The notes beneath the pieces are model-generated. The model saw only the letters and a list, made by a program, of their open reading frames with translations. It had not been told where the DNA came from and did not search any database. A program made the position numbers and the translations under genes. A stretch of DNA of 64,000 nt from a bacterium (GTDB lineage Bacteria > Zhuqueibacterota > Zhuqueibacteria > Residuimicrobiales > Krinioviventaceae), in the NCBI GenBank assembly GCA_963675755.2, contig CAXXMD010000003.1, positions 2,944,001 through 3,008,000 of the forward strand, written 5' to 3'. The stretch's first letter is position 1. Each line of letters opens with the position of its first letter. This document shows positions 3,002-39,204 of this stretch, piece after piece.

Positions 3002-3907
3002 TTAACCACCAATACGTTTACGTTTGATCAGGTATTGCATTAAAGCGATGTCAAATGACTCATGTGTGTCCATTAACGCGTAATCAATCTGATTGGCTAA
3101 ACACTGGTCTTTATAGGTTTTTAAAAAATCTGCCATTAGTGCTTGATAATCTTCACGTATATGCCAGGGCTGTGTTGCCATTTTTTCCCCGGTTTCCATA
3201 TCTTCAAAGGTAGTATTGTGTTTGAACTGAAATGAGCGTTCCATGGGATCCAGAATTTGAAAGACAATCACTTCGTGCTTTTTGTGTCTGAAATGTTTTA
3301 AGCCCGAGAGTACCCGTTCAGGATTGTCAAGCATGTCTGATAAAATTATGATTAATCCCCGGCGTTGAATACGTTCTGCAAGTTGATGAAAGGTCTCGGA
3401 AAGATTGGTTTCTTTACCGGTTTGTGTTGTTTGCAATTGTTCCAGAATAACATTCAAATATGTATGGACCGAACGGGGGGGAACATAACTTTTAATTCCT
3501 TCATCAAAGGTAACCAGGCCTACAGAATCTCTTTGTTTTAACATCAGATACGTTAGAGAGGCGGCAAGGTAAGAAGCATATTGAAATTTGGTGATCTTTT
3601 GAGATGTATATGCCATGGATGCGGATGCATCCAGTAAAATATATGCTTTAAGATTGGTCTCTTCTTCAAATTGTTTTACATAATATCTGTCGGTTTTGCC
3701 GTATACTTTCCAGTCCACATGGCGGATATCATCCCCCGGCATGTATTGACGATGTTCTGCAAATTCAACGCTGAATCCATGATACGGACTCTTGTGTAGA
3801 CCGGTCATAAAGCCTTCAACAACCAGGCGTGCGATAAGGTTCATGTTCCCAAGGCGAGACACTGCTTCAGGATTAAGATAGTTGATGGTTTGTTGGTTCT
3901 GGGCCAT
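3002..3907 (-). CDS. DUF58 family protein (MoxR-associated, VWA-like)
   Basis: GLHKSPYHGFSVEFAEHRQY.PGDD.R..DWK, LLDASASM. Adjacent to moxR. Confidence 0.9.
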   Translation of the reverse strand: MAQNQQTINYLNPEAVSRLGNMNLIARLVVEGFMTGLHKSPYHGFSVEFAEHRQYMPGDDIRHVDWKVYGKTDRYYVKQFEEETNLKAYILLDASASMAYTSQKITKFQYASYLAASLTYLMLKQRDSVGLVTFDEGIKSYVPPRSVHTYLNVILEQLQTTQTGKETNLSETFHQLAERIQRRGLIIILSDMLDNPERVLSGLKHFRHKKHEVIVFQILDPMERSFQFKHNTTFEDMETGEKMATQPWHIREDYQALMADFLKTYKDQCLANQIDYALMDTHESFDIALMQYLIKRKRIGG

Positions 3908-3910
3908 ATA

Positions 3911-4912
3911 TTATATCTGCTGTAAGAGTTTATCAATTACATCTGTTGAAGAAATTCCTTCAGCTTCGGCGTTAAAAGTGGTAACCAGCCTGTGTCGCAA
4001 CACCGGTTTGGCAACTGCTTTTACATCTTCAATATCAGGGGTTGGGCGTCCGTCAAGAACCGCACGTGTTTTTGCACCCAATACCAGAAATTGAGACGCG
4101 CGCGGACCGGCTCCCCAGTTGATCCATTCTTTGATAAATTTGGGGGCTTCGTCACTTTTGGGGCGTGTCTGTCTGGACAGTTTAACCGCAAAGCTGACCA
4201 CATTGTCTGCTACCGGTACACGTCTGACCAATGCCTGTAATTGAGTAATATCCTGTGCGTTGAGAACGATATTCAGTTCCGGGGTGTAACCACTGGTTGT
4301 AGAGTGGACTATTTGTTCTTCTTCTTTCAATGTAGGATAATCAACCCAGAGATTGAACATGAAGCGGTCAAGTTGTGCTTCAGGCAGGGGGTATGTACCT
4401 TCCTGTTCAATGGGGTTTTGAGTTGCCAGCACGAAAAAAGGCTCATCCAGTTTCAAAGTTTCACCTGCCGCACTTACTTCGTGTTCCTGCATGGCTTGCA
4501 GCAAAGCTGACTGGGTTTTGGGAGGAGTTCGGTTGATCTCGTCTGCCAAAACAATGTTTGCAAAAACAGGGCCTTTAACAAACTTGAAGGTTTTATGGCC
4601 GGTTGTCATGTCTTCTTCAATTACTTCAGTACCGGTAATATCTGATGGCATTAAATCCGGAGTAAATTGAATGCGGCTGAATTTTAAATCCAGTACTTGT
4701 GATAGTGTACTGATCAATAAAGTTTTTGCCAGACCGGGCACACCCACCAAAAGGCAATGGCCGCGAGATAACAATGAAATAAGCATTTCATCTATGATCT
4801 GGTTTTGCCCAATAATTACTTTGCCAATTTCATTAACAATATCATCATGAGATTTTTTTAACGCTTTAACAATTTCAACATCATCATTATGATTAAAAGA
4901 CGGTTTCTGCAT
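3911..4912 (-). CDS. moxR: MoxR family AAA+ ATPase
   Basis: GVPGLAKT Walker A, RIQFTPDLMPSD, LADEINR, EGTYPLPEAQLDRF. Confidence 0.95.
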   Translation of the reverse strand: MQKPSFNHNDDVEIVKALKKSHDDIVNEIGKVIIGQNQIIDEMLISLLSRGHCLLVGVPGLAKTLLISTLSQVLDLKFSRIQFTPDLMPSDITGTEVIEEDMTTGHKTFKFVKGPVFANIVLADEINRTPPKTQSALLQAMQEHEVSAAGETLKLDEPFFVLATQNPIEQEGTYPLPEAQLDRFMFNLWVDYPTLKEEEQIVHSTTSGYTPELNIVLNAQDITQLQALVRRVPVADNVVSFAVKLSRQTRPKSDEAPKFIKEWINWGAGPRASQFLVLGAKTRAVLDGRPTPDIEDVKAVAKPVLRHRLVTTFNAEAEGISSTDVIDKLLQQI

Positions 4913-9073: not shown

Positions 9074-11230
9074 ATGTCTGTATTTAACTTGATACATCTT
9101 TTGGGATTTGGATTCGGTGCAACGCTCACCATCATCATTATTGTACTGACGATGCAAAAAACACCAAAGTTCTATGATGATTATTTGCTGGGTATAGTAT
9201 TAAGTATGTGCTTGTTGTGGCTTGGTGGTAATTTTATCGCACTTTTGGGTGGATTTTTATTCGGTAGTGTATTGATGGTAGAGATAAATGCTCTGCTTTT
9301 GATTTCGTATCTGGGTTTATTATGTATACCGTCTGCATTGATACATGGATTAACCGGTATACTGCTTCGGGTAAAAGACAATTTACCTTCTTTTTCCAAA
9401 TTATACCAGGTGATCTTTGTTCTGGTTGTGTATGCACCCGTTGTGGTATTTATTGTACTGGCACTTCAATTTTATCTGAATCCTTATCTGAGGCTGCAGC
9501 TTGATGATGTATTAAGGGTTCCGTTTTACTTGTGGGTCTTATTTTCGTTGGTAATTGCAGTTATAATATGTGAAAATCTTGCACGTAGTCATCCTATAAA
9601 ATCTGACCGATATTTTTACAGAGACCTTTCAATCTCTCTTGCCGCACTGGGAATTGGAATCATTGTTGTTTACATCATTCCTTCCTATCGTATTTCATAT
9701 GTTGGCAGATATTTAAATATGACCATGCGCATCTCTCCATCATATCCTCTCGCAATTATGGCATATTATGTTTACCGTTACAATTTTTATCGTTTGGTAA
9801 TCAAGCCCAGTCTTGTCTATTCTATTATTTATGGTACAGTGATGGCCATTTATTTGCTCGGAATCAGAAGATTGGGAGAATATTTAAAACAGTATCCTGA
9901 AGTGAATTCCGAATTCATTGAAGGCATTCTTTTAATTGCCCTTGTATTCGCGTTTCAGCCATTTCGGCAATTGATACAGAATCGCCTAGACAGGATTTTC
10001 TTTAGAGACCGGCATTTTTATCAACAGGTATTGCGCGAACTGTCTGATGCTATTATTGGTATTGTAGATCTTGAAAAACTGTTGACAACCATTAGTGACT
10101 CTTTGTCAAAAGCGTTTAAATCCAGGTCTATTACCATTGTTGTTTTTCAATACAAGGACAAAAAACCTGAAATATATAAAACCGTAGGGCATCAGGATTT
10201 TAACGACTTTTTCGGACTTGTACGTGCATTTATGTCCACACGGAAAATGCGTCTCAGACAACAAATTAAGGATATGCGGGTTGTCAGAGAATTAGAAGTA
10301 AACAATCTTGAACTGGCTGTACCGGTTTTTTATCAAAAAGAGATTATGGGAATGATATGTTTGGAGGAAAAACAAACAGGCATACCCTATTCTGAAAATG
10401 AAATAGATATGCTGCAAACTTTTGCAAATCAGATAGGACTTGCAGTAGAAAATGCCCGGCTGGTGCAGGAACGGTTAAACCTTGAAGCCAGGGTATATCA
10501 GGCAGAAAAATTAAATTCATTGGGACAGTTGGCAACTACCATGTCGCATGAAATTAAAAATCCATTATCTTCAATAAACAGCATCATTCAGGTGCTTCAC
10601 GAAAGTGCACAAGGTGAGGAGCAAAAAGATCTTGAAATTGTTTTGAACGAGATACAGCGGTTAAACAATATTTTGAAAAAATTATTAACATTTTCAAAAC
10701 CAACTGACGGTACATTAGACAGGGTTTCTTTGCGAGAAATGGTACAGGATGTTATTTCTTTATTGAAATTTCAAGCGAATAAATACAATATTTCAATCAA
10801 AGTAAACGATTTCCCTGATCATGCTTTTATATATGCCAATAATCAGTCTGTCCGTGAAGTTATATTTAATCTGGTATTAAACGCTATGCAGTCCATTGAT
10901 AATGAGGGGCATATTGAATTGGAACTGGAAGCGTTGGAAAACGTAAAACCGTTGAGAAAAATCTCCAAACGAGTTGATATATCTGATGTTAAAAAATGGT
11001 ATTGTTTGACAGTTTTGGATGATGGCCCCGGAATAACCAAAGCAAATTTACGACACATTTTTGATCCTTTTTTTACAACCAAAAGTTCTGGAAGTGGATT
11101 AGGACTTTCCATTGTTAAAAAGAATGTAGAAGATTTTGGTGGATTTATACAGGTGAAAAGTCAGATGAAAAAAGGAACGGCATTTTGTGTCTATTTCCCC
11201 GTACATGAACAAGAGTTGCAAAATGGATGA
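9074..11230 (+). CDS. Multi-TM GAF sensor histidine kinase (PrsK-like architecture)
   Basis: About 9 TM segments, GAF (LAVPVFY..MGMICL..ANQIGLAVENARL), SHEIKNPL H-box, HATPase boxes. Confidence 0.9.
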   Translation: MSVFNLIHLLGFGFGATLTIIIIVLTMQKTPKFYDDYLLGIVLSMCLLWLGGNFIALLGGFLFGSVLMVEINALLLISYLGLLCIPSALIHGLTGILLRVKDNLPSFSKLYQVIFVLVVYAPVVVFIVLALQFYLNPYLRLQLDDVLRVPFYLWVLFSLVIAVIICENLARSHPIKSDRYFYRDLSISLAALGIGIIVVYIIPSYRISYVGRYLNMTMRISPSYPLAIMAYYVYRYNFYRLVIKPSLVYSIIYGTVMAIYLLGIRRLGEYLKQYPEVNSEFIEGILLIALVFAFQPFRQLIQNRLDRIFFRDRHFYQQVLRELSDAIIGIVDLEKLLTTISDSLSKAFKSRSITIVVFQYKDKKPEIYKTVGHQDFNDFFGLVRAFMSTRKMRLRQQIKDMRVVRELEVNNLELAVPVFYQKEIMGMICLEEKQTGIPYSENEIDMLQTFANQIGLAVENARLVQERLNLEARVYQAEKLNSLGQLATTMSHEIKNPLSSINSIIQVLHESAQGEEQKDLEIVLNEIQRLNNILKKLLTFSKPTDGTLDRVSLREMVQDVISLLKFQANKYNISIKVNDFPDHAFIYANNQSVREVIFNLVLNAMQSIDNEGHIELELEALENVKPLRKISKRVDISDVKKWYCLTVLDDGPGITKANLRHIFDPFFTTKSSGSGLGLSIVKKNVEDFGGFIQVKSQMKKGTAFCVYFPVHEQELQNG

Positions 11231-12629
11231 TAAATTGATAGAAAAAATTTTAATTGTAGACGATGAACCCACAGCACGCTATGGAATTCGTAAAGCTCTG
11301 GCAAAAGCGGGTTATGAACTGAGTGAAGCAGGTAATGGCAAAGAGGCACTGGAAAGCATTAAGGAGAATCTGCCGGATGTGGTTCTGAGTGATATATACA
11401 TGCCGGAAATGGATGGCCTTGAATTGTTACGGACAGTACAAAAACTAGAGTTTGAAGAAGATAAAAGACCTTTGATAATCATGCTAACAGCGTTTGGTTC
11501 TGAGAAACTGGCTGTTGAAGCTATGAAATCCGGAGCTTATAATTATCTGTCCAAGCCATTCAATATTGACGAACTGCGTTTAACCATTGAAAAAGCTCTT
11601 GATAAAATCCGGCTGGGCCGGGAAAATGTTTTATTGAAAAAACAACTGGACCAGCACAAGAAAACCGCAATTGTGGGCAAGAGTCCGCAGATATCTAATA
11701 TCATAAAACTGGTAGACAAAGTTGCCCCAACTGATGTCACCGTGTTGTTGACAGGAGAGAGCGGCACGGGAAAAGAACTTGCAGCCAGAACCATTCACAA
11801 TACCAGTCTTAGGCACGACGGTCCCTTTGTTACTATGAATTGTGCCGCTATTCCCAAAGATCTTGTGGAAAGTGAATTGTTCGGACATGAAAAGGGTGCG
11901 TTTACAGGTGCTTCTAATCAACGTGAAGGTAAATTCGAAATAGCAAATAATGGTACTTTATTTCTTGATGAAGTCGCAGATATGAGTCTGGAAACCCAGG
12001 CTAAAATATTACGAATTCTTGAGGAAAAATCTTTTTCCAGATTAGGCGGGAAAAAGATCATCCATACGGATGTCAGGCTCATTAGTGCAACCAATAAGGA
12101 CTTGCAAACAGAGATAGCAGCCGGTCGGTTTCGGGAAGATCTTTTTTACCGGATAAAAGTTGTCGAGATCCAGTTACCTCCATTAATTCAGCGAACAGGT
12201 GATATTGCACTGCTTGCGGATCATTTTGTAAAGTTGTATGCGGTTAAACATAATAAAGATGTTTCCGTTATTGATACAAAAGCTATGCAGATGCTATTAA
12301 ATTACAATTGGCCGGGAAATGTAAGACAATTGATGCACGTCATTGAACAAAGTATTGTTCTCTCTGAAGGTAAAGTTTTATTGCCCGATGTTTTACCTCC
12401 CGAGCTTTATATTGACAATACATTAAATGTTTTAAAACTTGATGGAAACGAGTCTTTTTCAGAAGCCAAAGAACGGTTTGTTCAGCAGTTTGAAAAAGAT
12501 ATCATTCAAAAAGCATTGGTCAAAGCCAATGGGAATGTAAGCCAGGCGGCCAGAGAATTGAAAATGAAGAGGCAGTTTTTACAACAAAAGATAAAAAGTC
12601 TGGATTTGAACGTGCAGGATTATAAATAA
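11223..12629 (+). CDS. Sigma54-dependent response regulator (NtrC/PrsR-like: REC-AAA-Fis HTH)
   Basis: ILIVDDE receiver, GESGTGKE, ESELFGHEKGAFTGA, WPGNVR, GNVSQAARELKM. ATG at 11223 overlaps the kinase stop. Confidence 0.93.
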   Translation: MDDKLIEKILIVDDEPTARYGIRKALAKAGYELSEAGNGKEALESIKENLPDVVLSDIYMPEMDGLELLRTVQKLEFEEDKRPLIIMLTAFGSEKLAVEAMKSGAYNYLSKPFNIDELRLTIEKALDKIRLGRENVLLKKQLDQHKKTAIVGKSPQISNIIKLVDKVAPTDVTVLLTGESGTGKELAARTIHNTSLRHDGPFVTMNCAAIPKDLVESELFGHEKGAFTGASNQREGKFEIANNGTLFLDEVADMSLETQAKILRILEEKSFSRLGGKKIIHTDVRLISATNKDLQTEIAAGRFREDLFYRIKVVEIQLPPLIQRTGDIALLADHFVKLYAVKHNKDVSVIDTKAMQMLLNYNWPGNVRQLMHVIEQSIVLSEGKVLLPDVLPPELYIDNTLNVLKLDGNESFSEAKERFVQQFEKDIIQKALVKANGNVSQAARELKMKRQFLQQKIKSLDLNVQDYK

Positions 12630-12657
12630 AAAAACCCGCTATTAAGCGGGTTTTTTT
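12628..12657. terminator. Bidirectional intrinsic terminator
   Basis: A-run, CCCGCT-atta-AGCGGG, T7, between convergent genes. Confidence 0.85.
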
Positions 12658-12665
12658 ATTATATA

Positions 12666-14048
12666 CTAATTAACCCTGTTGAAAACAAAGGGCAAGTTAA
12701 CTGTTATAGAGCCTTCCCTGATGGGCGGGAACTTTAATCGTCTTACAATATTCATCAACTCTCTTACAAAATCCTGATTATCAATTGATGATTCCAGAAT
12801 TTGAATGTTGGAAACACTACCATTGGCTTCAATGGTTACATCAAAACTCACTTTACCTCTCAAATCAGGATTGGTGCGCAGGTACTTGTTATATGTATAC
12901 ATAACACGACCCTGTTGAGAATTAATGATTGACATAACAGATTCGGATGTTCTTTGCGCTCTTGCTTCCTGAGAACCTCTCATGCGTTGGGGCTGCTGAA
13001 TGTTGACTTTGCCCTGTTTTTTCAGGTCAACGGTTTCAACGCCTTCCACTTCAGAGAGCAGATCATCAACACCGCCAGAAAGTCCAAAAGCCATCAGTTC
13101 ATCAATTCCGTCACCGTCTCCGGTACCACCGCCATCTCCGGTTCCATTGCCTTTACCTATTTTATTGCTCTTGGTCAAAGGTTTGCTACCAATGAGCTGA
13201 TCAAGTTCCTGAACAAAACCCTGTTCAATGAGAAAATCAGCCGCAGAACTTGAACTGCCGGAACTACCCGTACCGCCAATAAGTCCCAACAGACCTTGTG
13301 CGTTAACCGGTTTGGGAGCGGGTTTGTCTGATCCGCCACTGCCGCCTGGTTTGGGTTGTTCCTGCTGAGATTCCTGTTCCTGCGTTGTTTCTTCTTCAGC
13401 TTCACCTTCTCCGGAGCTTGTTGTTGCAACCATTTCGGTTTCTGGTGGCTGAGTTGGTTTCTTGATCATGAATCTTGCAAATCGTTCCGGAACCGTGGTT
13501 ACATCGGGTGGTTCCTCTGGTGGAAGTTCATATCCTTTTAGCGAAAAACCAATTATAATTTCAATACTGAAAAGGATAAGGAACAAAGATTTATATAATA
13601 AATCTTTGGTAAAAGTTTTGCCAATTGCCTTGTTCCAGGTGTAAAGAGGAAGCCCTTTAAGGGTTTCCGGCTGGTGGCCATTATAATTAAAAAAGATATC
13701 TGTATCTGATATTCTGAGAGAACCTGATCTGCCGTGTGTAAATTCTAAATTGTAAAAATTACCTTTTTGTGGTAAAAGGTTGTGTACAAACAGATCATTA
13801 AAAGTAACTTTGGAGCCTTTGAATTCAATTTCACCAGTCATTGCAGGTGAAATTTTCATACTGCAAGTGTTTTTCTTACATTCAATCAGAACATGCTTTT
13901 TGGGATAGGCATCGTCATATACAATAATATCATTATCCGGACTACGACCAATTGTAAGCTTGTCTTTTGGCCCAAAATAACGCTGAGTAACGCGACCACC
14001 CTGAACAATTTTGGCTTCTAATATAGAACTATTTCGTTTTATTGTCAT
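12666..14048 (-). CDS. GltG/PglI-like protein: FHA-like domain, TM, Pro/Glu/Gly-rich linker, TonB_C (AgmX/PglI C-terminal) domain
   Basis: LTIGRSPDNDI (FHA), PERFARF after the TM, GLLGLIG, Y.Y..YLR.NPDL.GKV....TI...G.V, NLPFVF. Confidence 0.82.
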   Translation of the reverse strand: MTIKRNSSILEAKIVQGGRVTQRYFGPKDKLTIGRSPDNDIIVYDDAYPKKHVLIECKKNTCSMKISPAMTGEIEFKGSKVTFNDLFVHNLLPQKGNFYNLEFTHGRSGSLRISDTDIFFNYNGHQPETLKGLPLYTWNKAIGKTFTKDLLYKSLFLILFSIEIIIGFSLKGYELPPEEPPDVTTVPERFARFMIKKPTQPPETEMVATTSSGEGEAEEETTQEQESQQEQPKPGGSGGSDKPAPKPVNAQGLLGLIGGTGSSGSSSSAADFLIEQGFVQELDQLIGSKPLTKSNKIGKGNGTGDGGGTGDGDGIDELMAFGLSGGVDDLLSEVEGVETVDLKKQGKVNIQQPQRMRGSQEARAQRTSESVMSIINSQQGRVMYTYNKYLRTNPDLRGKVSFDVTIEANGSVSNIQILESSIDNQDFVRELMNIVRRLKFPPIREGSITVNLPFVFNRVN

Positions 14049-14096
14049 GTATAATATCTATTTTATTTATATCGGGTTTCAACGAATTTGGGTTTA

Positions 14097-14609
14097 CTAT
14101 TCTATTTGGTTCACAGCAAGCAGCATATTGTTGTAACCAACACTACCGCAAGTCAACATAATACGTTTGACCAGTTCAAATGTAAGATCACGGTCACCCT
14201 GGATCGTAATATTACCTGTAAAACCGCCCTGGTCAGAAATTGAACCTATACCTTCAGAAATTGTACGAAGTTTGGTCAATTCATCTTTTAGGGGATTGAT
14301 GACGAGTAATTCATCATTCATGATATTTTCAAGTTTTTCTATTGGGCGTCCATCAACCAGTATCCATTCCTGCGTAATTGCTATAACGGATGTGACTTTG
14401 GGTTGCATTTGTGATGTAGATTCAGGCAATTTCAGATCTTTGGTAACGGTCATGATCTGACCTTCTGCACTGTAGCTCTTTAATAAAAACACCAATAGAA
14501 TGGTAAACATGTCTATCATTGAAGTCAATTTCAAATTGAATGTACCACGCTTGGTCCGTTTAGTACCGGTTGCAAGCAATGGTATTGTTTCATGTTCTTC
14601 TATCTTCAT
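14097..14609 (-). CDS. ExbD/TolR-family stator subunit (AglS-like)
   Basis: LKLTSMIDMFTILLVFLL TM with Asp33, L.LPES, IQGDR...F..VKRIM.TC. Confidence 0.88.
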   Translation of the reverse strand: MKIEEHETIPLLATGTKRTKRGTFNLKLTSMIDMFTILLVFLLKSYSAEGQIMTVTKDLKLPESTSQMQPKVTSVIAITQEWILVDGRPIEKLENIMNDELLVINPLKDELTKLRTISEGIGSISDQGGFTGNITIQGDRDLTFELVKRIMLTCGSVGYNNMLLAVNQIE

Positions 14610-14625
14610 GGTTTTATTCTCTTTC

Positions 14626-15093
14626 TTAGCCGGAAATAGAAATATTGGGAAAACCGGATTCCCTGCATCTGTCCATTACCTGAATAATTATGTGATACAG
14701 GATTGCGTCTTCTGGCGAAATTAATATATCTTCAGAATCCGGGTATTTTTCTTTTATTTGGTTCAACTGTGTGGTTAAACCCTGCCAGTTGAAATCATTA
14801 TCAGTTTTGTCTAATTTTTTAAGATTAAGATCAGGACTGTTGAGTTCAAAACCGGTCTCACTGATCTTTAATATGTTTAAAACCGTACTTTTGGGTTTTT
14901 CTGCTGTTGCAGTCTGACCGGGTTTGTCTAAACTCGGCAAAGACAATTCCATAACGGCAATACGAACAAATACTGCCGTTAACAGCATGAACGGAATCAG
15001 TATCAAAAAGATGTTCATTACAGCCGTCAGGTTTAATTCTGTTTCTTCTGCGTGTCCTTTAAGACGACTGCCCATGGATTGTTTTAAATTCAT
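14626..15093 (-). CDS. ExbD/TolR-family stator subunit (AglQ-like; TM Asp replaced by Asn)
   Basis: ELNLTAVMNIFLILIPFMLLTAVF TM, IK..YPD, Y..IIQVMD, FPNIS. Confidence 0.85.
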   Translation of the reverse strand: MNLKQSMGSRLKGHAEETELNLTAVMNIFLILIPFMLLTAVFVRIAVMELSLPSLDKPGQTATAEKPKSTVLNILKISETGFELNSPDLNLKKLDKTDNDFNWQGLTTQLNQIKEKYPDSEDILISPEDAILYHIIIQVMDRCRESGFPNISISG

Positions 15094-15096
15094 ATA

Positions 15097-15717
15097 TTAT
15101 TTCTCCGTTGTCATGAACCTGAACAAACGGGCAACATTTTCATTTATTTCATCGATTAATTCATTGGTTTTTTCCTGAAGATAGGTAAAGCCAATCAAAC
15201 AGGGGATAGCTGAAATAATACCAAAAGCTGTGGTATTCATCGCAATAGCAATACCGGATGTAAGCAATGCGGCTTTGTCTGCTGCATCAGCGTGAGCAAC
15301 CGCGGCAAACGCACTGATTAAACCAAAAATTGTTCCCAACAAACCCAACAGTGTGGAAACGTTTGCAATCATTGCTAAATAGTGGGTACGTTTTTCTAAT
15401 TTGGGTATTTCTACCATTGCTGCAAGTTCCATTGCGTTCTGAATGCTTTTGGGAGAGTTGTTGATTTCATTCAAACCAGCTTTTGCAATGTTTGGAAGTG
15501 CTGCATTAGAGATATTGCAATATTCTATAGCCCGGCTAACATTACCGCTTTTAATCAGTTCTGCAATTTTATTTACAAACAATTCTGAATCGATACGATT
15601 TTTGAATTGTATAAAAATTACACGTTCAATAATGGTAACCAGCCCGAGAAGCAGCGCGAACAAGATTACAAACATAACCGGTCCACCACCCATAAAAAAT
15701 CTAATAATACTGTCCAA
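15097..15717 (-). CDS. MotA/TolQ/ExbB proton-channel protein (AglR-like)
   Basis: GGPVM, ER, TLLGLLGTIFGLI, AMNTTAFG. TTG start with AAGGAGG SD. Confidence 0.92.
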   Translation of the reverse strand: MDSIIRFFMGGGPVMFVILFALLLGLVTIIERVIFIQFKNRIDSELFVNKIAELIKSGNVSRAIEYCNISNAALPNIAKAGLNEINNSPKSIQNAMELAAMVEIPKLEKRTHYLAMIANVSTLLGLLGTIFGLISAFAAVAHADAADKAALLTSGIAIAMNTTAFGIISAIPCLIGFTYLQEKTNELIDEINENVARLFRFMTTEK

Positions 15718-15801
15718 GGAAACCTCCTTAATGTTATTTAGAAGCGAGAAAAATTATCTTGAATAATTTAACAAAAATAGAAAATAATTTCAAATTTATT
15801 A

Positions 15802-16185
15802 CTACCAGGGAATATAATCTTTTCTATCAACTGTAGGATCTGTTGTGATTTTTGTTTGTATACGTCCCCTTTTTTCCACCGGTCGAAAGATTTCTTTAAA
15901 AAATGAATGTTCAATTTGAATATCGGTCAATATCCGGAGTGGAACCTGGCAAAATAAACATGGCTTGCGGTTTTTCCAATTGACCAACGACTTCAATTTT
16001 ATCTATAAACAGTTTAACGTCCGAATCTTCAATTGTGGGGGCACTTTCGTTCATCATATTCTGAGCGTTTTGTGCCTGCAAAGTAGAATCATTAGCAAAT
16101 TCCTGCAGTAAACAATTCATTTGAATTTTTGTGCGAATAACAATACGGGAAGTATTATTAATGTAATTACATTATTGTATTTCAT
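15802..16185 (-). pseudogene. GltF/CglF-like small secreted protein, split by frameshifts in this sequence
   Basis: Three pieces in shifting frames: signal peptide MKYNNVITLIILPVLLFAQ (ATG 16185), then IEVVGQLEKPQAMFIL, then DIQIEHSFFKEIF. Frame breaks near 16126 and 15925. Confidence 0.65.
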
Positions 16186-16209
16186 AAACTTTTTTAAAAT
16201 TCTTCATGG

Positions 16210-19124
16210 TTAACCTGCTGTTTCCTGAGCTACATTTAATTCTTCACTGGGTTCGGCTTGAACTTTTTGAGTTTCTAATCCCTCTGTTAGAGATTCAATT
16301 CGTTTTTTACTTTCCGTAACCCAAATATTATCAATACTATTTGCTTCAGCTTGTTCAATATTTCTTCTGTATGTTTCTAGCGCCTGTGTTTTATAGGGTT
16401 CTGCTTTTTCCCGAAGCATATCAACATACATGGTAAGCTGTTCATCATTCAACTCTTCCGGTGGAGGAGACTCTACTCAAATGCTCTGAAAAACTCTTCA
16501 AAAGCCATGCCAATTTTATGAGTTGAGGCGGTGCTCCAGTCAGCTACCTGATACTCTAGTGCACTCTTGTATGCACCCAATACTTTTTGAAGGTTTTTAA
16601 CTTTTAGCTGTAAATTTGTTTTAAGCGGTGGAACCAGTTCAATTTTTTGAAACGGCGTGTAATAAATTTCACCTATCATAAACTGTGCTTGTGCAGCAAA
16701 ATAATTGTCTGCAAACTCACCACTTTTTGTTATGGCTTGAAAGTTTTCAATAGTCTTTTTAAAATATTCTTCTGCCGCAGTAAAATCTTTGACTTTATAG
16801 TTCATATCGCCAATTTTATACAGACATTCTAATAGTTCATCGCCAGGTTCTGGATATGTAGAAATATACCGTTCATAATATGATCTTGCGGAATACCAAT
16901 CTTCAAGTGTTTCATAATTATAAGCAGCATTTCGAATCGCATTTTTGTGATGTTCTGAATCAGAATAATTGTCTGCCAGCAGGATATAATCATTAGCTGC
17001 AAGCGTCCAGTTTTGGGTGCTTTCACGAATACCCGCAGCTTTGTAAAGCGCTTCATCAGCCATTTCAGATTCAGGGAACAGCTTGAAAAATTGTTCCAGG
17101 GCTAATGCTGCTTTATCCGGTTGTTCACCTTGTTGGAACTGGATAGCAGATTCGAATAGCGCTCTTTCCCGAAATTCAGGATTCGAAGAAGTCGTTACAA
17201 TGGATGCCAACAGGTTTGCCGCTTCAAGGGGTTTGCCTTCCTGGTTCAAGGCTTCAGCAATTTTAAAGTTGGATGAAGAAGCCATCATTTCCGCTTTTTG
17301 CAAGTACCGTGTTGAATCAGGAAAAGATTTTACAATATCATCGAACCAGATTTCTGCTTCATGATACAATTCTGCGTCATAGTAACATTGCCCTGCATTC
17401 ATAGCAGAAAGCAATCTGTATGGCCTCTTGTCACCCAGGTCAATGACTTTTTTATAAATTTCTATGGCGGGCAAATAGTATTTCAAAGAGTGCATGATCT
17501 CGCCATATTTCATATAAACCTGATCTAATAAATTGCTTTCAGGGAACATGAGCACAAAATCATTGCTCGAAATCAAAAGATTTTTCTCTACACCTGTATT
17601 GGTGTTAAATGTCAACGTATCCGGTGTATTCAAAAAGTTGGGTATATCTACAGAGCCGCCGGCAGCTGTAGAGTCGTCAAGTAATTGGTAATAACTTAGA
17701 ATTCTATTATAAGCGGCTTGTTCTTTGAATTCCGTTTTTGATAAGGAATCACGTTTTACAACGCTGTAATAAGATTCAGCAGCATTGTAATAATCGTTAA
17801 TTTCATAATAACATTCAGCAAGATAGTAGTTGATCTTGACTGCATCATCAGCAGTAGAGAATTTATCCAAGTATTCTTTGTATTTATCAATCGCAGTTTG
17901 AAAACTATTAATATCTGCCGATTGTTGAGCTTCAGCCTGATAAAAAGTACCCAAATAAACCAGTGATTTTTTTGTTATATCGAGACCGGTATTTTGTACG
18001 GTATCTGCCTGATTAGTTTGCCATTCACTGCCAGGACCTAGATACGTGACCAATTTCTCACGAGTTTTGTTTGCACCTTCTATATCCTCATCCAGTTCAT
18101 AACTTTCGATGATTTTTTGATAGATATTTGGCGCGTCACTATAGTATGGATATATATCAAGAAGCACGTTCAAGATTTCAATGGATTCTGTATAATAGTT
18201 TCGTTCGTGGTATAAGTCATAAATTTTTAAAAGAATGGGGAGTGTATAATCTTTATCTTTGTGATTGATCAGAAAATTATGTGCAGCAGATGGACCACCA
18301 AACTCGGTAAAACAGCTTGAAATATAATATATAGCTTCTGTCCTGAGATCAGCCTTGCTCTTTGTAAACACCTGGGTTTTTGCTTTTTCAATGAGAGAAA
18401 TATCTTCAATGAGGTAGAGGAAGGTACTGATAGCATCGGAATAATTGTTTAAATTATAATATGACCAGCCCAGTTTGTAAAGGCTCATATCAAAATAAGG
18501 ATTACTCCACTCATCCAGCAGTTCTTTGTAATGCGAAATAGCTGTTTTATAATCTCTTTGAGAAAAATAGTATTCACCAATTCTAAAGTGTGCTTCAAAG
18601 GCAATGGGTGATTCCGGATGATTGGCTACAATACTTTCGAAATAATCTTTGGCCCGAAGTTTATCACCCTGCTGGAAATAGGAAATTCCTAACTTGTATA
18701 ATACTTTGTCTTTAAACTTGGAAGCAGGAAAATCTGTTAAAAGCCTGTTACAGTATTCTATTGTCTTATTCATGTCCAATTTGGGCAAAGAAGGTTCGGT
18801 AGCAATTTCACCATTATCAAACCTTCCAAGATCCGTTTCGTATTGCTGCATTTGAAGCTGATAATTGATCTGAGATCTTTGTGTGTACAATTCGGCAAGC
18901 TGAAACATGATTGTTGACGCAAACGGACCTTGCGGGTATTTTTTTAACAAAGTCTCATGCTCAGAAATAATCGCATCCAGTTTACCAATATCTTCACCCG
19001 TATCCTGGATGATTGCATTTACATAGGCACTTTCCTGACCAATTACGGTGACTGACTGGCCAAGAAAGAGTAAACCCACTATGAATGCAACAAGGCAGTT
19101 TTTATATAAATTTGATTTTTTCAT
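16210..19124 (-). CDS. Large secreted TPR protein (GltD/AgmU-like), frameshifted near 16477
   Basis: Signal peptide, MFQLAELY, many TPR repeats. The 883-aa ORF ends at FFRAFE*; VESPPPEELNDEQ..Y..ML.EKAEP continues in another frame to the stop at 16210. Confidence 0.8.
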
Positions 19125-19149
19125 AATTTTTTTAACATTATTAATGATA

Positions 19150-20544
19150 CTAGTTATGTATTTCTGTGCGTTTCAAAAATAATGCCCTTGATTTACCATA
19201 TTCGGCAAAAGCTCTCCAATCCTGTCTTTCTTCTTTCACTTTGATCATATTTTTCATAATGTCCATTTCAGCCAGCATGCTTTGGAAATTTTGACGTTCG
19301 GTCTGGATTTGTCTCATCAATTCATTACGAGTTTGATTTATCTCGTGTTTTTCCAGCTGTAAATAATCTGGCGCTTCAGTATCAGGCGTTAATTGGATCA
19401 GGTTGAGCAATTTTGTTTCAAGTACCAGTAAATCCATTTTAATTGATTCCAGTCTTCTTTCCTGAATATGAATACTGGATTCTACTTCGTTGACAATCAT
19501 GGGTACTAGCTCACGCTTTGGTAAGCTATTTACCAAATATTCGTATACTTTGAGGGCTTCATCGTATAACCCTAATTTTAAATAACATCTTCCCAATAAA
19601 AAGAAACCTTCCTGGGTATTTTCATCTTCATTCGGCATGGATACCAGGTCAGTTAATGGATCTACCGCAAGTTGATATTGTTTCATCTTGGTTGCGGCCC
19701 ATCCTGCAGCTAACAACGCACTTTTATAATGGTTATGTTTTGAAGATACTGCTCTGAAATTACCCAAAGCTCTCTGGTAATAACCCAATTCATAATAGAT
19801 ATAACCGAGTGTCAGGTAGGTTTCATCAACAATATTTCTAAAATCATCATTAACGATAGGTATACGAAGAATTGAATTGAGTGAATTAACAGCTTCTCGA
19901 ACCTGACGCAAGCGCAAGTATGCAAGTGCTGCTGTATATTGTGCATATGGTGAATAGGGATTTCCCTTGTCAATCTCGGTCAATATTTCAATGGCTTTGT
20001 CATAATCGAACAGGTTGTAATAAGAAAGACCCGCGTAATATCTTGAAGCATCAAGAATGTCTCTTGAAGGATTACCTTTGGTGATGACTTTATAGAATTC
20101 GATACATTTTTCCAGATTGCCTTTATCATATTCTATTCGTTGAAGTCCTAGTAAAGCTCTGGGTAAATGAGGACTGGCAATATATTTTTTTACAAGGAAT
20201 TTAAAAATCTTTTTCGATCCATCTAGCAACCCAATTTCAAATAGACAATCACCAAGTGTAAAAACAACCTGATCGATCTTGGAGTAACTGGGGTAAAAGT
20301 CCATAAGGATAATCAGATTCCGTGAGCTTTCCCAATAATCTCCATCCATAAACATTTTTTCAGCCTCAAGATAAAGCTTTTCAGCCGCACGCTCTAGCTC
20401 TTCTGTTTCTGCTCTTTGCAGTCTGGCTTCTTTATCTTCCGGTTGAGAATATACAGCGGTTGGGAGTAAAGTCCCCCCAAGCATAATTGCTATAATTGCT
20501 GCAATCCACATTTTGGACTGTTTGGATTTATCTAAAAGGGTCAT
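19150..20544 (-). CDS. Secreted TPR protein with C-terminal coiled coil (GltC-like)
   Basis: Signal peptide, TPR repeats, LTLGYIYYELG, ALLAAGWA. Position in the operon fits. Confidence 0.72.
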   Translation of the reverse strand: MTLLDKSKQSKMWIAAIIAIMLGGTLLPTAVYSQPEDKEARLQRAETEELERAAEKLYLEAEKMFMDGDYWESSRNLIILMDFYPSYSKIDQVVFTLGDCLFEIGLLDGSKKIFKFLVKKYIASPHLPRALLGLQRIEYDKGNLEKCIEFYKVITKGNPSRDILDASRYYAGLSYYNLFDYDKAIEILTEIDKGNPYSPYAQYTAALAYLRLRQVREAVNSLNSILRIPIVNDDFRNIVDETYLTLGYIYYELGYYQRALGNFRAVSSKHNHYKSALLAAGWAATKMKQYQLAVDPLTDLVSMPNEDENTQEGFFLLGRCYLKLGLYDEALKVYEYLVNSLPKRELVPMIVNEVESSIHIQERRLESIKMDLLVLETKLLNLIQLTPDTEAPDYLQLEKHEINQTRNELMRQIQTERQNFQSMLAEMDIMKNMIKVKEERQDWRAFAEYGKSRALFLKRTEIHN

Positions 20545-20663
20545 TCGATTCTTGCTTCAAGTTGTTTGTTATATAAATATATGCCTATTTTTGCAGCACT
20601 ATTTAGAGTTATAATGTATGAATATACTCACATTAAACATCATATACGTAAATATTTTTTAAT

Positions 20664-21695
20664 TTATTCAGTTTTAGGTTTCTTTTCTTCTTCAAGTTGT
20701 TTCCGAAGTTCTTCAAGATCTTTGACAACTTCTTTACGTTTTTGTTGTATTTGGTCCAATTCTTTACGCTCTTCCTGGCGCTGGTTATCCATTTCTCTTT
20801 CTTTGCGGGTTTTACCTGCAAAGATATTGGTACGGTATGTCACTCCAAACATGACTTTCCAATCTGCATAATCTTTCATGAATGGGTTGGCAGCCAGGTT
20901 TTCATTTTCCGGGGTGAATCTGCCCAATTCAAAATCAGCAGCCAGATCACAAATCAAATGCCAGGGACCAACAAATCTAAATCCCTGTGTGAAGCGAGTA
21001 AAGTTTTGACTTGGAGTAATATCAGCATTATTGATAAACATTTCACCTGTAAATTCAGAATAGAACAGAGATGATCTTACCGGGAATTTGAATCCGAGAC
21101 CGCCTATGATCTGATCTTTTTCTGAGGAAAAGTAGGCATCAGACCAGTTGTTATCCAGATAGCCCAGGTTGATTGACAACTTCATTGGAAATGTTTTGAT
21201 ATAATCTTTGAAATCCAGCGTAGACAACAACATTAAACCCCAACCCATAGCATCATCCGTATAGGGTTCAAATTGTACATTGTGATTCAAAGCTGTTGGA
21301 AACTTGGCAAAACCAGCAAGTCCCAATTGTACCATTGAACCGTATCGGGGTAGGTGATATTTTACATACAAGCGAGAATCACCAATAGGACCCCAGGTGT
21401 GCTTTTGATCATCCTGGTAAGGGGTCAGTTGTGCAAATACTTCAAATTGTTCTGAAAGGCTAGTTGTAATACCCAAATGTAAAGCATGATCTTCACTGAA
21501 ACTTTCGTTATCTCCGGCACCGTAAAATGAATACACAGGATTAATTGCCAAAACACCCGGATGTATGGTTTCAGCTTCAATAATTCTGAACAAACCTTTG
21601 CCACCAAAATAAGAAACCTGTGCAAAGCTATTCATTGAAAAAAGTATAATGAAAATAAAAAATATTGATCCAATATTTGTCAATTTCCTGTTCAT
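20664..21695 (-). CDS. Putative outer-membrane beta-barrel protein with charged C-terminal coiled coil
   Basis: Signal peptide (SFA/Q), G..GL, GDSRLYVKY, INLGY, amphipathic strands ending FGVTY, then a K/E-rich helix. Confidence 0.65.
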   Translation of the reverse strand: MNRKLTNIGSIFFIFIILFSMNSFAQVSYFGGKGLFRIIEAETIHPGVLAINPVYSFYGAGDNESFSEDHALHLGITTSLSEQFEVFAQLTPYQDDQKHTWGPIGDSRLYVKYHLPRYGSMVQLGLAGFAKFPTALNHNVQFEPYTDDAMGWGLMLLSTLDFKDYIKTFPMKLSINLGYLDNNWSDAYFSSEKDQIIGGLGFKFPVRSSLFYSEFTGEMFINNADITPSQNFTRFTQGFRFVGPWHLICDLAADFELGRFTPENENLAANPFMKDYADWKVMFGVTYRTNIFAGKTRKEREMDNQRQEERKELDQIQQKRKEVVKDLEELRKQLEEEKKPKTE

Positions 21696-21822: not shown

Positions 21823-23979
21823 CTACAACATCCCAAACTTTTTGCGCAAAAACCATTCCAATGAAAGCAAAGTGATTATAGTTATTAGAATTATTTTATG
21901 GTTCCAAACATCTACTTGAAAAGTGTTTGTGATTTCCCGAGTTTGACCATCAATTTCAGAAAAAAGTAAATTCAAAGAATCAGGATGTATAAATTTCCCA
22001 CCGCTTTTTGCTGCTAACTCTTTTAAAACAGAGACTTGGAGCCTTGTGTTTGCCAGCTCAGAGTTATAATTGCCCATGCTGAAAAGGGCTGTATTGTGCT
22101 TGTCCTTAGGCAGGGAGGGTGTTTCAAGATTTAGCTGGTAATCACCAGACTCGTCCAGATAGATAGTTTTTGTAAATTGATTTTCTTTGTTAGGGTCCAA
22201 TTGCAGGTACTCTGTTTCATTTTCGTGATCAAGCTGTAATGTGATTTCATTTTTGTAATTGCTAATTGCATCTGGGTTATTGATGCTTACATGAATATGA
22301 ACGGGATCACCAAAGTTGTAATTCTTTTTATCTGTAGATATTTTTAACCAGTCAGTCTCTTTTTTTACTTCAAGCCACTGTAGAGAATTCAGAATAAAGT
22401 TCTCGTAAACCTTGTCATCATTTTCTACCCCTCTCATCATCAAGTCCCAACGCCATGTATCATATGCCAGTAACGCTTCAGATTTGTGATTGTTTTCATT
22501 TCTCACAAGAACCAAAGGTAGTGCTTGTTGTTCTAAAGCACCTGTTCCTGCCTGCGCCAAAACCTGTGTTCCCGGCCACATATTGGTTATATATACATCT
22601 GTAAATGCAGGTGGAAGCTTTTGCCAGTTGTAATAATTATCACCGGATGCATTTGTGCTCAGCATTATGGGGTGGCTTTTACCATTAGCAGTTAACGTTG
22701 GAGAAATTTGAGTGAATTTTGTTTTGTTAACAGGTGATTTAAAAGGCAGAAATTCTTGCAGGCTACTCAACTGATTAAAGTCTGTATTGGGGCCAGAAAT
22801 AAAAAAGATCGGTTTTTTATCCGCTTTCAAGCGTTCAGATATTTGATTGATAATTGATTTATTACTGTTTGTAACAGGATAATTAAATAAAATAAACAGA
22901 TCTGTTTCTTGTAAAAGTGTAGGCACATCTATTTCAGTTTTATAAAAACTGCCATCTTTTTTTTGAACAAGTTTGGTTATTTGATAACGATCCGTATTTT
23001 GAATATATCTGTTAATAAAAGAAATATCCGTGGCTGGGCCACCGGCAACAAGTGTTACATTTTGTTTGGCTTTTAATACTTCATGATAAATTGTATATGT
23101 ATTATTTTGGCTTAGAAATTCATCTGACTGCTGAGGAATTGATACGGTTACTTTATGCTGTCCTTCTTTTTCCGGAGTGTAATTCATTTCAAGATTAACT
23201 TCGGAAGGAGAGGAGGGAATGGTTAAGGTTTGGGTCTGTTGAGATTTTCCATCAATGTACAAGGATACGGGAACTACCAGATTGCTAAAACCTGTAGTGC
23301 GGATTGTAATAATAAATTCTGCAGGTTCATTTACATATGTAAAGGGATTGGTTTGAACATAGTCGATGCTGATATCCCGAATGGGATTCGCAGAACCAAT
23401 ACCCACCGGATATACAGGGATTGATGATTCTGTAGCAAATCGGGCAGGACTGCCACCTTGATTATAATTTCCATCGGTATAGATAACAATTGCTGAGAGA
23501 TTATTATTTTCCTGATCCTGATTGATGTAATTCAATGCTTTGCTGATATTGGTGACATCGCCTGTGAAATCTTGAATGATTTCTTTATTCTCTTTAACAG
23601 GTTGAACATCACCAGAGAATGTATAATATTTTAACTTGAACTTGTTTAATAATTGATCAAATACAGGATCATTTGCAGCTTTTTCTAAAAGACTGACACG
23701 GTCACCACTGGCATCTTTTATTGACATGCTTTTGCTGTTATCTATTGCAATGCCAATAACCGGTTCAAGCTGTTTTTTGGTATTGTAATAAAGTTGCCCC
23801 TGAAATAGTACAATGAATAACAAGAAAAAAGCGATCCCGCGTAAAAATGCAAGGATAAGTTTAGAGTAAAGTGGTACAGCCGGAACTGTTTTGCGATAAA
23901 CAAATAAAGTAAATATTATTGAGATAATAAGGGTAATGATAAAAATTTCGATGTGTTGTATAAACAAGCTGTAATGCAT
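21823..23979 (-). CDS. Membrane-anchored VWA-domain protein with Ig-like and GATase-like domains
   Basis: Two N-terminal TMs, IDNSKSM MIDAS, TDG, C-terminal TM with LEWFLRKKFG. Confidence 0.8.
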   Translation of the reverse strand: MHYSLFIQHIEIFIITLIISIIFTLFVYRKTVPAVPLYSKLILAFLRGIAFFLLFIVLFQGQLYYNTKKQLEPVIGIAIDNSKSMSIKDASGDRVSLLEKAANDPVFDQLLNKFKLKYYTFSGDVQPVKENKEIIQDFTGDVTNISKALNYINQDQENNNLSAIVIYTDGNYNQGGSPARFATESSIPVYPVGIGSANPIRDISIDYVQTNPFTYVNEPAEFIITIRTTGFSNLVVPVSLYIDGKSQQTQTLTIPSSPSEVNLEMNYTPEKEGQHKVTVSIPQQSDEFLSQNNTYTIYHEVLKAKQNVTLVAGGPATDISFINRYIQNTDRYQITKLVQKKDGSFYKTEIDVPTLLQETDLFILFNYPVTNSNKSIINQISERLKADKKPIFFISGPNTDFNQLSSLQEFLPFKSPVNKTKFTQISPTLTANGKSHPIMLSTNASGDNYYNWQKLPPAFTDVYITNMWPGTQVLAQAGTGALEQQALPLVLVRNENNHKSEALLAYDTWRWDLMMRGVENDDKVYENFILNSLQWLEVKKETDWLKISTDKKNYNFGDPVHIHVSINNPDAISNYKNEITLQLDHENETEYLQLDPNKENQFTKTIYLDESGDYQLNLETPSLPKDKHNTALFSMGNYNSELANTRLQVSVLKELAAKSGGKFIHPDSLNLLFSEIDGQTREITNTFQVDVWNHKIILITIITLLSLEWFLRKKFGML

Positions 23980-38019: not shown

Positions 38020-39195
38020 ATGGTGAAATATCAATTGATAAAACGACTGTGGTTTTTGCTCCTTGTGTATATCATTTCAATTGTCCCTTGTGGTGCATTT
38101 GCGCTTGATGACAAAATTGGTATAGGCGTTAAAGCAGGAATGGGTCGCCTTGAGGGGGATTGGAGCAGCCCCGGACTCTCATTCAACGGTTCTGTTTTTG
38201 CAAGTTACAGCCCGTTTCCATACTTTAGTATAAGTGGTGAGCTGGGAACCGGTTTTCTCAGAACCTCGGAAATATCAGATATCAACAGGATTGATGCCGG
38301 CTTTGATAATGTAGATGATTACAGTACAACATTTGTACCCTATGAATTGCAGGTACAGGTCAATCCTTTTCCATATTTTAAAATCAAGCCCTTTGCATTG
38401 CTGGGGGTAGGTGGCTTGTGGTTTAATTCAACCTACCAGGATGCTACAATTAACCTGGATGGTGTTGAACAGAATTTAATGGATTCATATATCAAGTTTG
38501 GTGGAGGTATTGAATATCCAATTGAACCACGTATTTCAGTAATGCTTGGTGCGGATTTTAGACAAACCATGACAGATCGCCTTGAACAATGGAAAAGTGG
38601 TGATGAAAACGACGGCATTATTTCAGTTTGGGCCGGAGTTACATATTATTTTCCACTAAAGAATAAAGATGATCGTGATTTTGACAATATTCCATTGTCT
38701 TTGGATGTTGATCCGATCTATGCTGAAGATTTTAATGGATATCAGGACCACGATGGACGACCAGAAAACGGCGTTCCTGAAAATTTTGATTATAAAAAAC
38801 CCCTGGTTAAACATAACCCTGTGTTTAGAGCGCTTGAGGGTAGTAATCTTGAAATTAAAGCAGAAATTTATTCTACCACGCCTTTGAAAAGTATTTCAAT
38901 TATGCACCGGGCAATGGGTAGTAAAAAATGGCAAGTTGTTGAGATGAGTCCGGAACCGAATAATGTATATGTGGGTGAAATAGATAAATCATATATAACC
39001 GGTGATGGGCTTGAATATTTTGTTGTTGCAGTAACACGAGATTTACAAGGTATGGGATATTCAGGATTACCAAAACGCCCTATCCAGGTCAAGGTAGTAA
39101 AAAATGCTCCAAAATGGCGACTAGCCACCGGGGCGCTTTCAGCTTTAAGCTGGGCTAGCGCTTTGTATATTATTCTAAGAAAACAAACCAATTAG
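38020..39195 (+). CDS. Outer-membrane beta-barrel protein with TSP3-like Asp-rich segment, Ig-like domain and C-terminal hydrophobic helix
   Basis: Signal peptide, OmpA-type strands (PFALLGVGG, FGGGIEY, AGVTYYF), DRDFDNIP..EDFNGYQDHDGRPE, H.P...LEYFVVA. Confidence 0.7.
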   Translation: MVKYQLIKRLWFLLLVYIISIVPCGAFALDDKIGIGVKAGMGRLEGDWSSPGLSFNGSVFASYSPFPYFSISGELGTGFLRTSEISDINRIDAGFDNVDDYSTTFVPYELQVQVNPFPYFKIKPFALLGVGGLWFNSTYQDATINLDGVEQNLMDSYIKFGGGIEYPIEPRISVMLGADFRQTMTDRLEQWKSGDENDGIISVWAGVTYYFPLKNKDDRDFDNIPLSLDVDPIYAEDFNGYQDHDGRPENGVPENFDYKKPLVKHNPVFRALEGSNLEIKAEIYSTTPLKSISIMHRAMGSKKWQVVEMSPEPNNVYVGEIDKSYITGDGLEYFVVAVTRDLQGMGYSGLPKRPIQVKVVKNAPKWRLATGALSALSWASALYIILRKQTN

Positions 39196-39204
39196 GAGAG
39201 CGAA

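Follow-up and report, generated by a model that had tools for sequence, protein, structure and literature searches.

An eight-gene operon that probably encodes a KSB1-lineage version of the Agl–Glt core complex

Introduction

Automatic annotation would misname the genes of the operon considered here TolQ, TolR, TonB, and YbgF, and the question that the locus raises is which envelope machine these genes encode. The operon lies in a stretch of 64,000 nucleotides (nt; hereafter the window) from a genome of the Zhuqueibacterota (assembly GCA_963675755.2, contig CAXXMD010000003.1, positions 2,944,001 to 3,008,000), where eight genes occupy about 9 kb of the minus strand, from 21695 to 12666. A preliminary description of the sequence had read them as a near-complete trans-envelope motor operon of the Agl–Glt or Nfs type, located outside the myxobacteria, and as the best candidate for a novel system in the window. 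We find that the operon is real and was correctly read, and that it is a homolog of the Agl–Glt “core complex” with a distinctive gene set. Our preferred reading, to which we give a probability of roughly 0.7, is that it represents the KSB1-lineage version of this complex, driven by the proton motive force and spanning the cell envelope. As such, it is a new deep lineage of a known system and not a wholly new one.

The core complex was described by Luciano and colleagues in 2011 as aglR, aglQ, and aglS together with gltC, gltD, gltE, and gltG in one cluster, of Group B (PMC3169522). The hosts named in that paper are Gamma- and Betaproteobacteria, Geobacter, and Fibrobacter succinogenes, a member of the FCB superphylum, and the function of the clusters was given as unknown. 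The published clusters are described as carrying one additional gene that has no myxobacterial homolog, the core complex was judged unlikely to drive motility alone, and gltF was listed as restricted to Myxococcales and Bdellovibrio (PMC3169522). The function of core complexes outside the myxobacteria has been an open question since then, and understanding it was held to explain the origin of the gliding and spore-coat machines (PMC3169522). With core clusters outside the myxobacteria, including that of F. succinogenes, already described in 2011, calling the present operon the best candidate for a novel system was too strong.

Gene content and homology of the operon

In the order of transcription, the operon encodes a β-barrel of 343 amino acids (aa), a TPR protein of 464 aa, a TPR protein of 883 aa with an out-of-frame tail, a small secreted protein, a MotA_ExbB protein, two ExbD proteins, and a GltG-like protein of 460 aa. 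The genes are separated by 3 to 119 nt and form one cluster, with a sigma-70-like site in front (21817-21788) and a single terminator at the end; a sigma-54 promoter was sought upstream of the operon and not found. The terminator (12628-12657, both strands) is bidirectional and intrinsic, and its hairpin folds at −20.7 kcal/mol (z −6.23; 0 of 200 shuffles fold as well). It was located by eye and by folding, and a simple terminator scan missed it. Every item of the gene list, gene order, and terminator given in the preliminary description was correct, all on the minus strand. The G+C content of the window is 36-42%. On the other side of the terminator, a histidine kinase gene and a sigma-54 activator gene (9074-12629) run convergent with the operon, and the activator gene shares the terminator with it.

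As reference loci, we used the result of a genome scan with an alignment of myxobacterial-type GltG proteins, which returned 80 loci from Myxococcaceae or Archangiaceae alone, each of them holding the same paralogous cluster. This is probably the G4 cluster, next to mglA. The cluster of Myxococcus sp. Y35 (L054) is an example. Its products are a small GTPase of about the size of MglA, a GltC-like protein that scores 66 bits to the NCBIfam model gliding_GltC, a TPR protein of 1112 aa, a GltE-like protein that scores 119 bits to gliding_GltE, a secreted protein of 91 aa, and a GltG-like protein of 447 aa. In M. xanthus, MXAN_1922 is the gltD homolog of the G4 cluster, and the function of this cluster was given as unknown (PMC3169522). 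One further locus (L051), in a record titled Comamonas sp. KCTC 72670, also holds a Myxococcus-type G4 cluster with a small GltF-like gene; its GltG-like protein shares 58% identity with the Archangium query, and the record appears to be mislabeled or to come from a mixed assembly.

Profiles built from the G4 proteins have their best window matches inside the operon, in the same order C, D, F, and G. Because these profiles single out exactly the ORFs (open reading frames) of the operon among the 1825 six-frame ORFs of the window, a match by chance is excluded. The profile and BLASTP results together place the operon as collinear with C, D, (E), F, and G, with the motor genes placed after the GltF-like gene and before the GltG-like gene (gaps of 3-84 nt) and the barrel gene in front. 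The G4 clusters resemble the operon in this order and in having a short GltG of about 450 aa that lacks the first FHA domain. However, they include a GltE-like gene, and tblastn found no homolog of the window barrel within 10 kb of them and no match to any of the three motor proteins in the 80 loci (0 matches each). Identities between G4 and window proteins are about 23–30%.

The last gene of the operon (12666-14048, minus strand) encodes the GltG-like transducer. Its product of 460 aa consists of a cytoplasmic FHA-like domain, a transmembrane (TM) helix at about residues 150-170, a long low-complexity linker rich in Pro, Gly, Ser, and Glu, and a TonB_C-type tail of the AgmX/PglI kind. The NCBIfam model gliding_GltG aligns with residues 20-457 (model positions 214-646 of 650) at 96.3 bits and E 1.7e-27, which is below the equivalog cut-off of that model (650), as is the case for every relative of about 450 aa that we tested. 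The model for the AgmX/PglI C-terminal domain, myxo_SS_tail, scores 76.7 bits against a cut-off of 40, the Pfam cut-off for TonB_C is reached, and the G4 GltG profile (79 sequences) has this ORF as its best window match (E 1.6e-40). Both gliding_GltG and the tail model were matched by all 12 relatives of about 450 aa that were tested, and a precomputed FHA domain is present in a homolog that is 51% identical to the window protein. The short form of GltG is widespread. With a threshold of E ≤0.001, an exhaustive search returned 3957 cluster representatives, 544 of which reach E ≤1e-10, and many of the representatives are about 450 aa long and can be aligned end to end. Myxococcus GltG is described as having two FHA domains, one at the N-terminus and one directly in front of the TM helix, followed by a disordered stretch in the periplasm and a C-terminal domain that resembles TonB; the second FHA domain and the TM helix form the part that is predicted to bind the AglR pentamer (PMC11761067). 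Judged by alignment, the 460-aa protein corresponds to all of GltG minus the first FHA domain.

Of 26 GltG-type proteins that were aligned, 23 share a polar position halfway through the TM helix (His in 10, Glu in 6, Asn in 4, and Gln in 3), and the window protein has Glu163 at this column. TonB and TolA carry an essential TM histidine. By analogy, the mid-membrane polar residue of GltG-type proteins may be a coupling residue.

The large TPR protein resembles GltD. Its first 883 residues are encoded at 16473-19124 (minus strand), and 87 C-terminal codons follow in another reading frame at about 16210-16475 (minus strand). These out-of-frame codons are 73% identical to residues 881-969 of a 969-aa homolog (P0218) and contain no further stops. 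Among the matches listed, 117 of 119 GltD-like homologs are 907-1035 aa long and uninterrupted, and the two shorter ones sit on contigs of <5 kb. Because the tail aligns with the 969-aa homolog and the listed homologs have these lengths, the earlier estimate of about 970 aa for the repaired protein is correct. In BLASTP, the 883-aa protein is collinear with the GltD-like protein of Myxococcus sp. Y35 (residues 48-878 against 100-993; 205 bits, E 1e-58), and its best tblastn match in the other G4 loci reaches 269 bits (E 2e-76). The G4 GltD profile (63 sequences) recovers both parts, the ORF at 16476-19172 with E 1e-94 (315 bits) and the out-of-frame tail with E 3.5e-4.

Upstream of it, at 19150-20544 (minus strand), lies the gene for a periplasmic TPR protein of 464 aa, with matches to Pfam TPR families and a coiled-coil-like C-terminal tail. 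This protein resembles GltC. It scores 24.8 bits to the NCBIfam GltC model, aligns with the GltC-like protein of Myxococcus sp. Y35 over 125 residues (BLASTP E 1e-11), and is the first window match of the G4 GltC profile (54 sequences; E 6.8e-16, with the next ORF at 7.5e-6). It shows no similarity to GltE-like proteins. Elsewhere in the window, at 38020-40035 (plus strand), genes for an OMP_b-brl protein (391 aa) and a TPR_6 protein (276 aa) follow each other; the latter is a weak third match of the same profile (E 4e-5), and the two may be a CpoB-like pair.

The small secreted protein (about 15802-16183, minus strand) is a candidate GltF/CglF-like protein. The gene is real but spread over three frames, which hold the signal peptide (16183-16118), a motif piece (16171-15914), and a C-terminal piece ending at 15802. 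A profile of 76 small ORFs located just upstream of the G4 GltG-like gene matched the window ORF at 15914-16171 (minus strand) with E 2.5e-6 as its sole match, the next-best ORF having E 0.23, and the aligned core is the same motif that the preliminary description had picked out by eye. The NCBIfam model gliding_CglF was matched by all 21 of the G4 small proteins tested (best E 9.3e-11), and CglF is given as another name for GltF (PMC4488436). A predicted complex between the tail of the GltG-like protein (residues 330-460) and the small-protein piece had a score of 0.00, a prediction that was run without controls and is evidence neither way.

The motor genes form a set of the aglR/Q/S type, namely one channel gene and two ExbD-like genes side by side (15717-14097) with gaps of 3 and 16 nt. 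The channel subunit (15097-15717, minus strand; 206 aa, three TM helices) is AglR/TolQ-like, matches Pfam MotA_ExbB with E 2.4e-28, and has a TTG start 7 nt after AGGAGG. The two ExbD/TolR-like subunits, of 155 aa (14626-15093, minus strand; Pfam ExbD E 1.3e-18) and 170 aa (14097-14609, minus strand; E 1.6e-11), are 24% identical to each other. In an alignment with E. coli TolR and ExbD, the membrane Asp is kept in the 170-aa subunit, and the 155-aa subunit has Asn. Among NCBIfam equivalogs, the channel protein scores 76 bits to TolQ (cut-off 221) and 47 bits to ExbB (cut-off 206), the 155-aa protein scores 32 bits to TolR (cut-off 127) and 17-19 bits to the ExbD models (cut-offs 153-216), and no NCBIfam model matched the 170-aa protein. 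Because these cut-offs are missed by wide margins, the motor proteins are not canonical TolQR or ExbBD by NCBI thresholds. Against solved structures in the PDB, TolQ (45 bits) comes ahead of ExbB (37 bits) for the channel protein.

The first gene (20664-21695, minus strand) encodes a protein of 343 aa with a signal peptide and no match to a Pfam or NCBIfam family. AlphaFold2 confidently predicts an outer-membrane β-barrel of 12 strands (mean pLDDT 89.1, pTM 0.76); this model was built from an alignment of 44 sequences and was used in place of a single-sequence model (pLDDT 37.5). A charged helix of about 40 residues at the C-terminus (residues 297-338) is assigned to the periplasm. Foldseek matched the model to 12-stranded outer-membrane barrels at modest TM-scores, including FapF (5o68, E 2.9e-6), NanC (TMt 0.72), Tsx, and intimin.

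Comparison with known systems

By homology, then, the operon encodes a TolQ-like channel with two different TolR-like partners, a GltG-type transducer, a GltD-type scaffold, a GltC-type TPR protein, a small secreted protein of the GltF/CglF type, and, as its first product, the dedicated 12-stranded barrel. The TonB_C, large TPR, and smaller TPR proteins show specific similarity to the GltG, GltD, and GltC types, as does the small protein, by way of its G4 relatives, to the GltF/CglF type. On this point the preliminary description holds against the refuting condition that it had set. Five of the six core-complex features that we tested are present, and GltE is the one that is absent. Like the published core complex, the operon combines one TolQ-like and two TolR-like genes with genes of the GltG, GltD, and GltC types in a single unit outside the myxobacteria. 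It differs in lacking a GltE homolog, in having a GltF/CglF-like gene, and in starting with a gene for a dedicated barrel. The “additional gene” of the published clusters may be one of these two extra genes, the barrel or the small protein. New here are the KSB1/Calditrichota-like lineage, the dedicated 12-stranded barrel, the GltF-like gene outside Myxococcota and Bdellovibrio, and the Asn in place of the channel Asp in one ExbD paralog.

The operon is far from the gliding machine of M. xanthus, which has 17 proteins. It shares with the Agl–Glt and Nfs systems the proposed chain of inner-membrane motor, GltG, GltD, GltF, GltC, and outer-membrane barrel or barrels (PMC11761067). However, the window proteins have no lipobox, and there is one barrel where Myxococcus has three. 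No sequence homolog of GltA, GltB, GltH, GltI, GltJ, GltK, CglB, AglZ, or MglA was found in the locus or the window. A Pfam scan of 58 window ORFs found no GltI, GltJ, AglZ, or MglA/MglB among them. The operon contains no gene for a lipoprotein or VWA adhesin, and the GltA/B/H/K and CglB module was not found in it, although a barrel of some kind is present. Given the lack of a GltE homolog and of these other components in the window, “near-complete” was too strong a term, and what the operon holds is the core gene set.

Several observations weigh against our reading. To our knowledge, no core complex outside Myxococcota has a known function. GltE belongs to the published core set, and a homolog was not found here: gliding_GltE matched neither TPR protein at E ≤10, BLASTP of a GltE-like protein against a window TPR protein gave E 9.1, and the G4 GltE profile (31 sequences) had no window match at E ≤10. 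The putative kinship of the motor with AglRQS is one of gene set. The assignment to GltF is transitive and rests on about 55 residues, because the window piece does not itself match gliding_CglF while its G4 relatives do. The match to GltC spans just 125-200 residues or so of a repeat protein, and the GltC assignment is weaker than the other Glt assignments of the operon. In the transducer, the Pfam FHA domain is below threshold (17.5 bits against 20.7), and a profile of the GltG family searched against the PDB matched TonB C-terminal domains alone (E ~1e-6) and no FHA structure. For the barrel, no relationship to GltA, GltB, or GltH is detectable by sequence. The 155-aa subunit has Asn at the position where the D28N substitution in AglQ paralyzes the Myxococcus motor (PMC3858216); AglQ and AglS, the corresponding Myxococcus pair, are both reported to keep the Asp (PMC9389320). 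Finally, the frame breaks in two of the genes may mean that the system is impaired in this genome, or that the assembly is wrong there.

Alternative explanations

The frame breaks raise the possibility that the operon is a decaying remnant, inactivated in this genome by interruption of its GltD-like and GltF-like genes, which would be compatible with homology to Glt. Three breaks fall within about 560 bp (about 15915-16476), one at codon 883 of the GltD-like gene (about 16475) and two in the small gene (about 16115 and 15915), and, as noted, GltD-like homologs elsewhere are uninterrupted. The Pfam scan of the 49 flanking ORFs brought no further split gene to notice, although it was not a systematic test for such genes. 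However, the seven remaining reading frames of the operon are intact and full length relative to their homologs, and the broken GltD-like pieces have kept 73% identity without acquiring further stops. Two of the three breaks also adjoin runs of A or T, as local sequencing or assembly errors would. We therefore consider decay of the operon in this genome unlikely.

Another explanation is functional and would likewise be compatible with homology to Glt: the operon could serve envelope maintenance in the manner of Tol, with TolQ, TolR, a TolA-like protein, and a CpoB-like protein tethering or constricting the outer membrane during growth and division. The likeness to Tol–Pal is considerable in its parts, with a motor of the TolQ/TolR type, a TM-anchored transducer with a C-terminal domain of the TonB/TolA type, and a periplasmic partner rich in TPR_6 units. 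TolQ is the best named match of the channel protein, both in NCBIfam and among solved structures. In NCBIfam, the GltD-like protein scores above the equivalog cut-off for YbgF/CpoB (112.8 against 90.1), although only through several stretches of repeated TPR_6 units, by which it also exceeds the cut-off for BamD (95.9 against 81.4). Some homologs carry the JGI label “TolA-binding protein,” and MreC, MreD, PBP2, and RodA are encoded about 11 kb from the operon. However, the TolQ and TolR cut-offs are missed, and no TolB or Pal was found in the operon or among the 49 flanking ORFs scanned. The scaffold of 970 aa is about eight times longer than the TPR domain of CpoB and is collinear with GltD, not with the YbgF model of 119 positions, and the cytoplasmic FHA-like domain, the small GltF-like adaptor, and the operon's own barrel set it apart from Tol–Pal, in which the first two have no counterpart. 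On balance, a Tol-like maintenance role appears improbable.

An ordinary Ton system of the FCB type, in which ExbB, two ExbD proteins, and TonB would energize receptors encoded elsewhere and the TPR genes would be accessory, is highly improbable: the Pfam names (MotA_ExbB, ExbD, ExbD, and TonB_C), the TonB_C fold-type tail with its exclusively TonB matches in the PDB, and the label “energy transducer TonB” that sources give some homologs all point to it, but the ExbB and ExbD scores are far below their cut-offs, TolQ outscores ExbB for the channel protein, the TonB-like protein aligns with GltG across the FHA-like domain, TM helix, linker, and tail and passes the AgmX/PglI cut-off, GltD-, GltC-, and GltF-like genes share the operon, and the scan of the 49 flanking ORFs found no TonB-dependent receptor. 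The absence of a TonB-dependent receptor and of tolB and pal, which the preliminary description had used to set the locus apart from Ton and Tol, is thus borne out across these ORFs.

Predicted mechanism and output

If the operon encodes a KSB1-lineage core complex, a mechanism can be proposed by analogy with the Myxococcus model (Cambillau and Mignot 2025, PMC11761067; Luciano 2011, PMC3169522). The motor would have a 5:2 stoichiometry, in which the two TolR-like proteins, just one of them with a protonatable Asp, form a heterodimer enclosed by five channel subunits. Proton flow would move the TM helix of the GltG-like protein, with its mid-membrane Glu, and in the periplasm this protein would contact the GltD-like scaffold through its long linker and TonB_C-like tail. 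The connection from the scaffold to the barrel would then run through the GltF-like peptide and the GltC-like protein. In the Myxococcus model, GltC is placed in contact with the GltA/B/H barrels on their periplasmic face (PMC11761067). Through this chain, from motor to GltG, GltD, GltF/GltC, and barrel, force would arrive at the outer membrane. As a working model, then, proton-driven force generated at the inner membrane would be transmitted to the outer-membrane barrel and would act on a surface polymer or protein.

Our best guess for the output, by analogy with Nfs, is that the machine moves or organizes a surface-bound polymer or an outer-membrane protein. Such an output could, but need not, yield surface motility, and motility itself is pure inference. 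A broader claim can be formulated, namely that KSB1/Calditrichota have a self-contained Glt machine of eight genes that drives the transport of a polymer or adhesin, or a new form of gliding, with one protonatable Asp per stator dimer, and that the full trans-envelope chain pre-existed outside Myxococcota. We put this forward tentatively and regard it as doubtful. If it were true, the whole chain, including the GltF-type adaptor and the barrel, would not have been assembled by late recruitment in Myxococcota.

A compact operon with motor, transducer, scaffold, adaptor, and outer-membrane barrel offers a minimal parts list for modeling or reconstitution. The presence of a GltF-like gene here also questions the published view of GltF as a late addition specific to the myxobacteria. 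These uses have their limits: the host phylum is uncultured, two of the genes have frame breaks in this genome, and the proposed function is a prediction.

Distribution and genomic neighborhood

The GltG-like protein has 69 relatives at E ≤0.001. Ten of these carry an organism label: six are from “candidate division KSB1,” one is from “Calditrichaeota,” two are labeled “bacterium,” and one is from Archangium. The taxonomic picture is the same for relatives of the large TPR protein and the 343-aa barrel, with best identities of 60-71%. For the barrel, 46 homologs were found, and the eight with an organism name comprise six from KSB1, one “Bacteroidetes bacterium,” and one “bacterium.” Under its new name, Zhuqueibacterota, KSB1 is placed in the FCB superphylum (PMC11683472). 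The host lies outside the myxobacteria, and the names attached to the close homologs are candidate division KSB1 or Calditrichaeota. Literature searches found no link of Glt or adventurous gliding genes to KSB1/Calditrichota, and term searches of KSB1 genome papers returned no mention of gliding or TonB.

Identical “longest contig” values served as a proxy for linkage. Such a value is shared with a GltG-like or GltD-like homolog by 16 of the 46 barrel homologs, and with a GltD-like homolog by 16 of the 59 GltG-like homologs of the KSB1 type. The shared values include 6652, 10654, 12114, and 12560 bases, and contigs this short that hold both genes imply an arrangement as compact as the one described here.

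The nearest gene upstream of the operon, 127 bp away on the same strand (21823-23979, minus strand), encodes a protein of 718 aa with TM helices at both ends and no match to a Pfam or NCBIfam family. We considered it as a CglB-like VWA partner and set this aside, as its look-alikes in the Atlas are VWFA/GATase1-like proteins, which are widespread and, where the phylum is known, come mostly from Bacteroidota or Fidelibacterota. The 718-aa protein is probably unrelated to the operon.

Further away, at 3002-4912 (minus strand), a gene for an AAA ATPase of the MoxR type adjoins one for a DUF58/VWA protein. The sole perfect sigma-54 consensus in the window lies at 41910-41925 (plus strand), just upstream of a STAS gene. 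That gene opens a surface-polysaccharide locus (41974-63619), about 20 kb from the operon, in which it is followed by genes for a Wza-like exporter, a Wzc-like kinase, a sugar transferase, and many glycosyltransferases.

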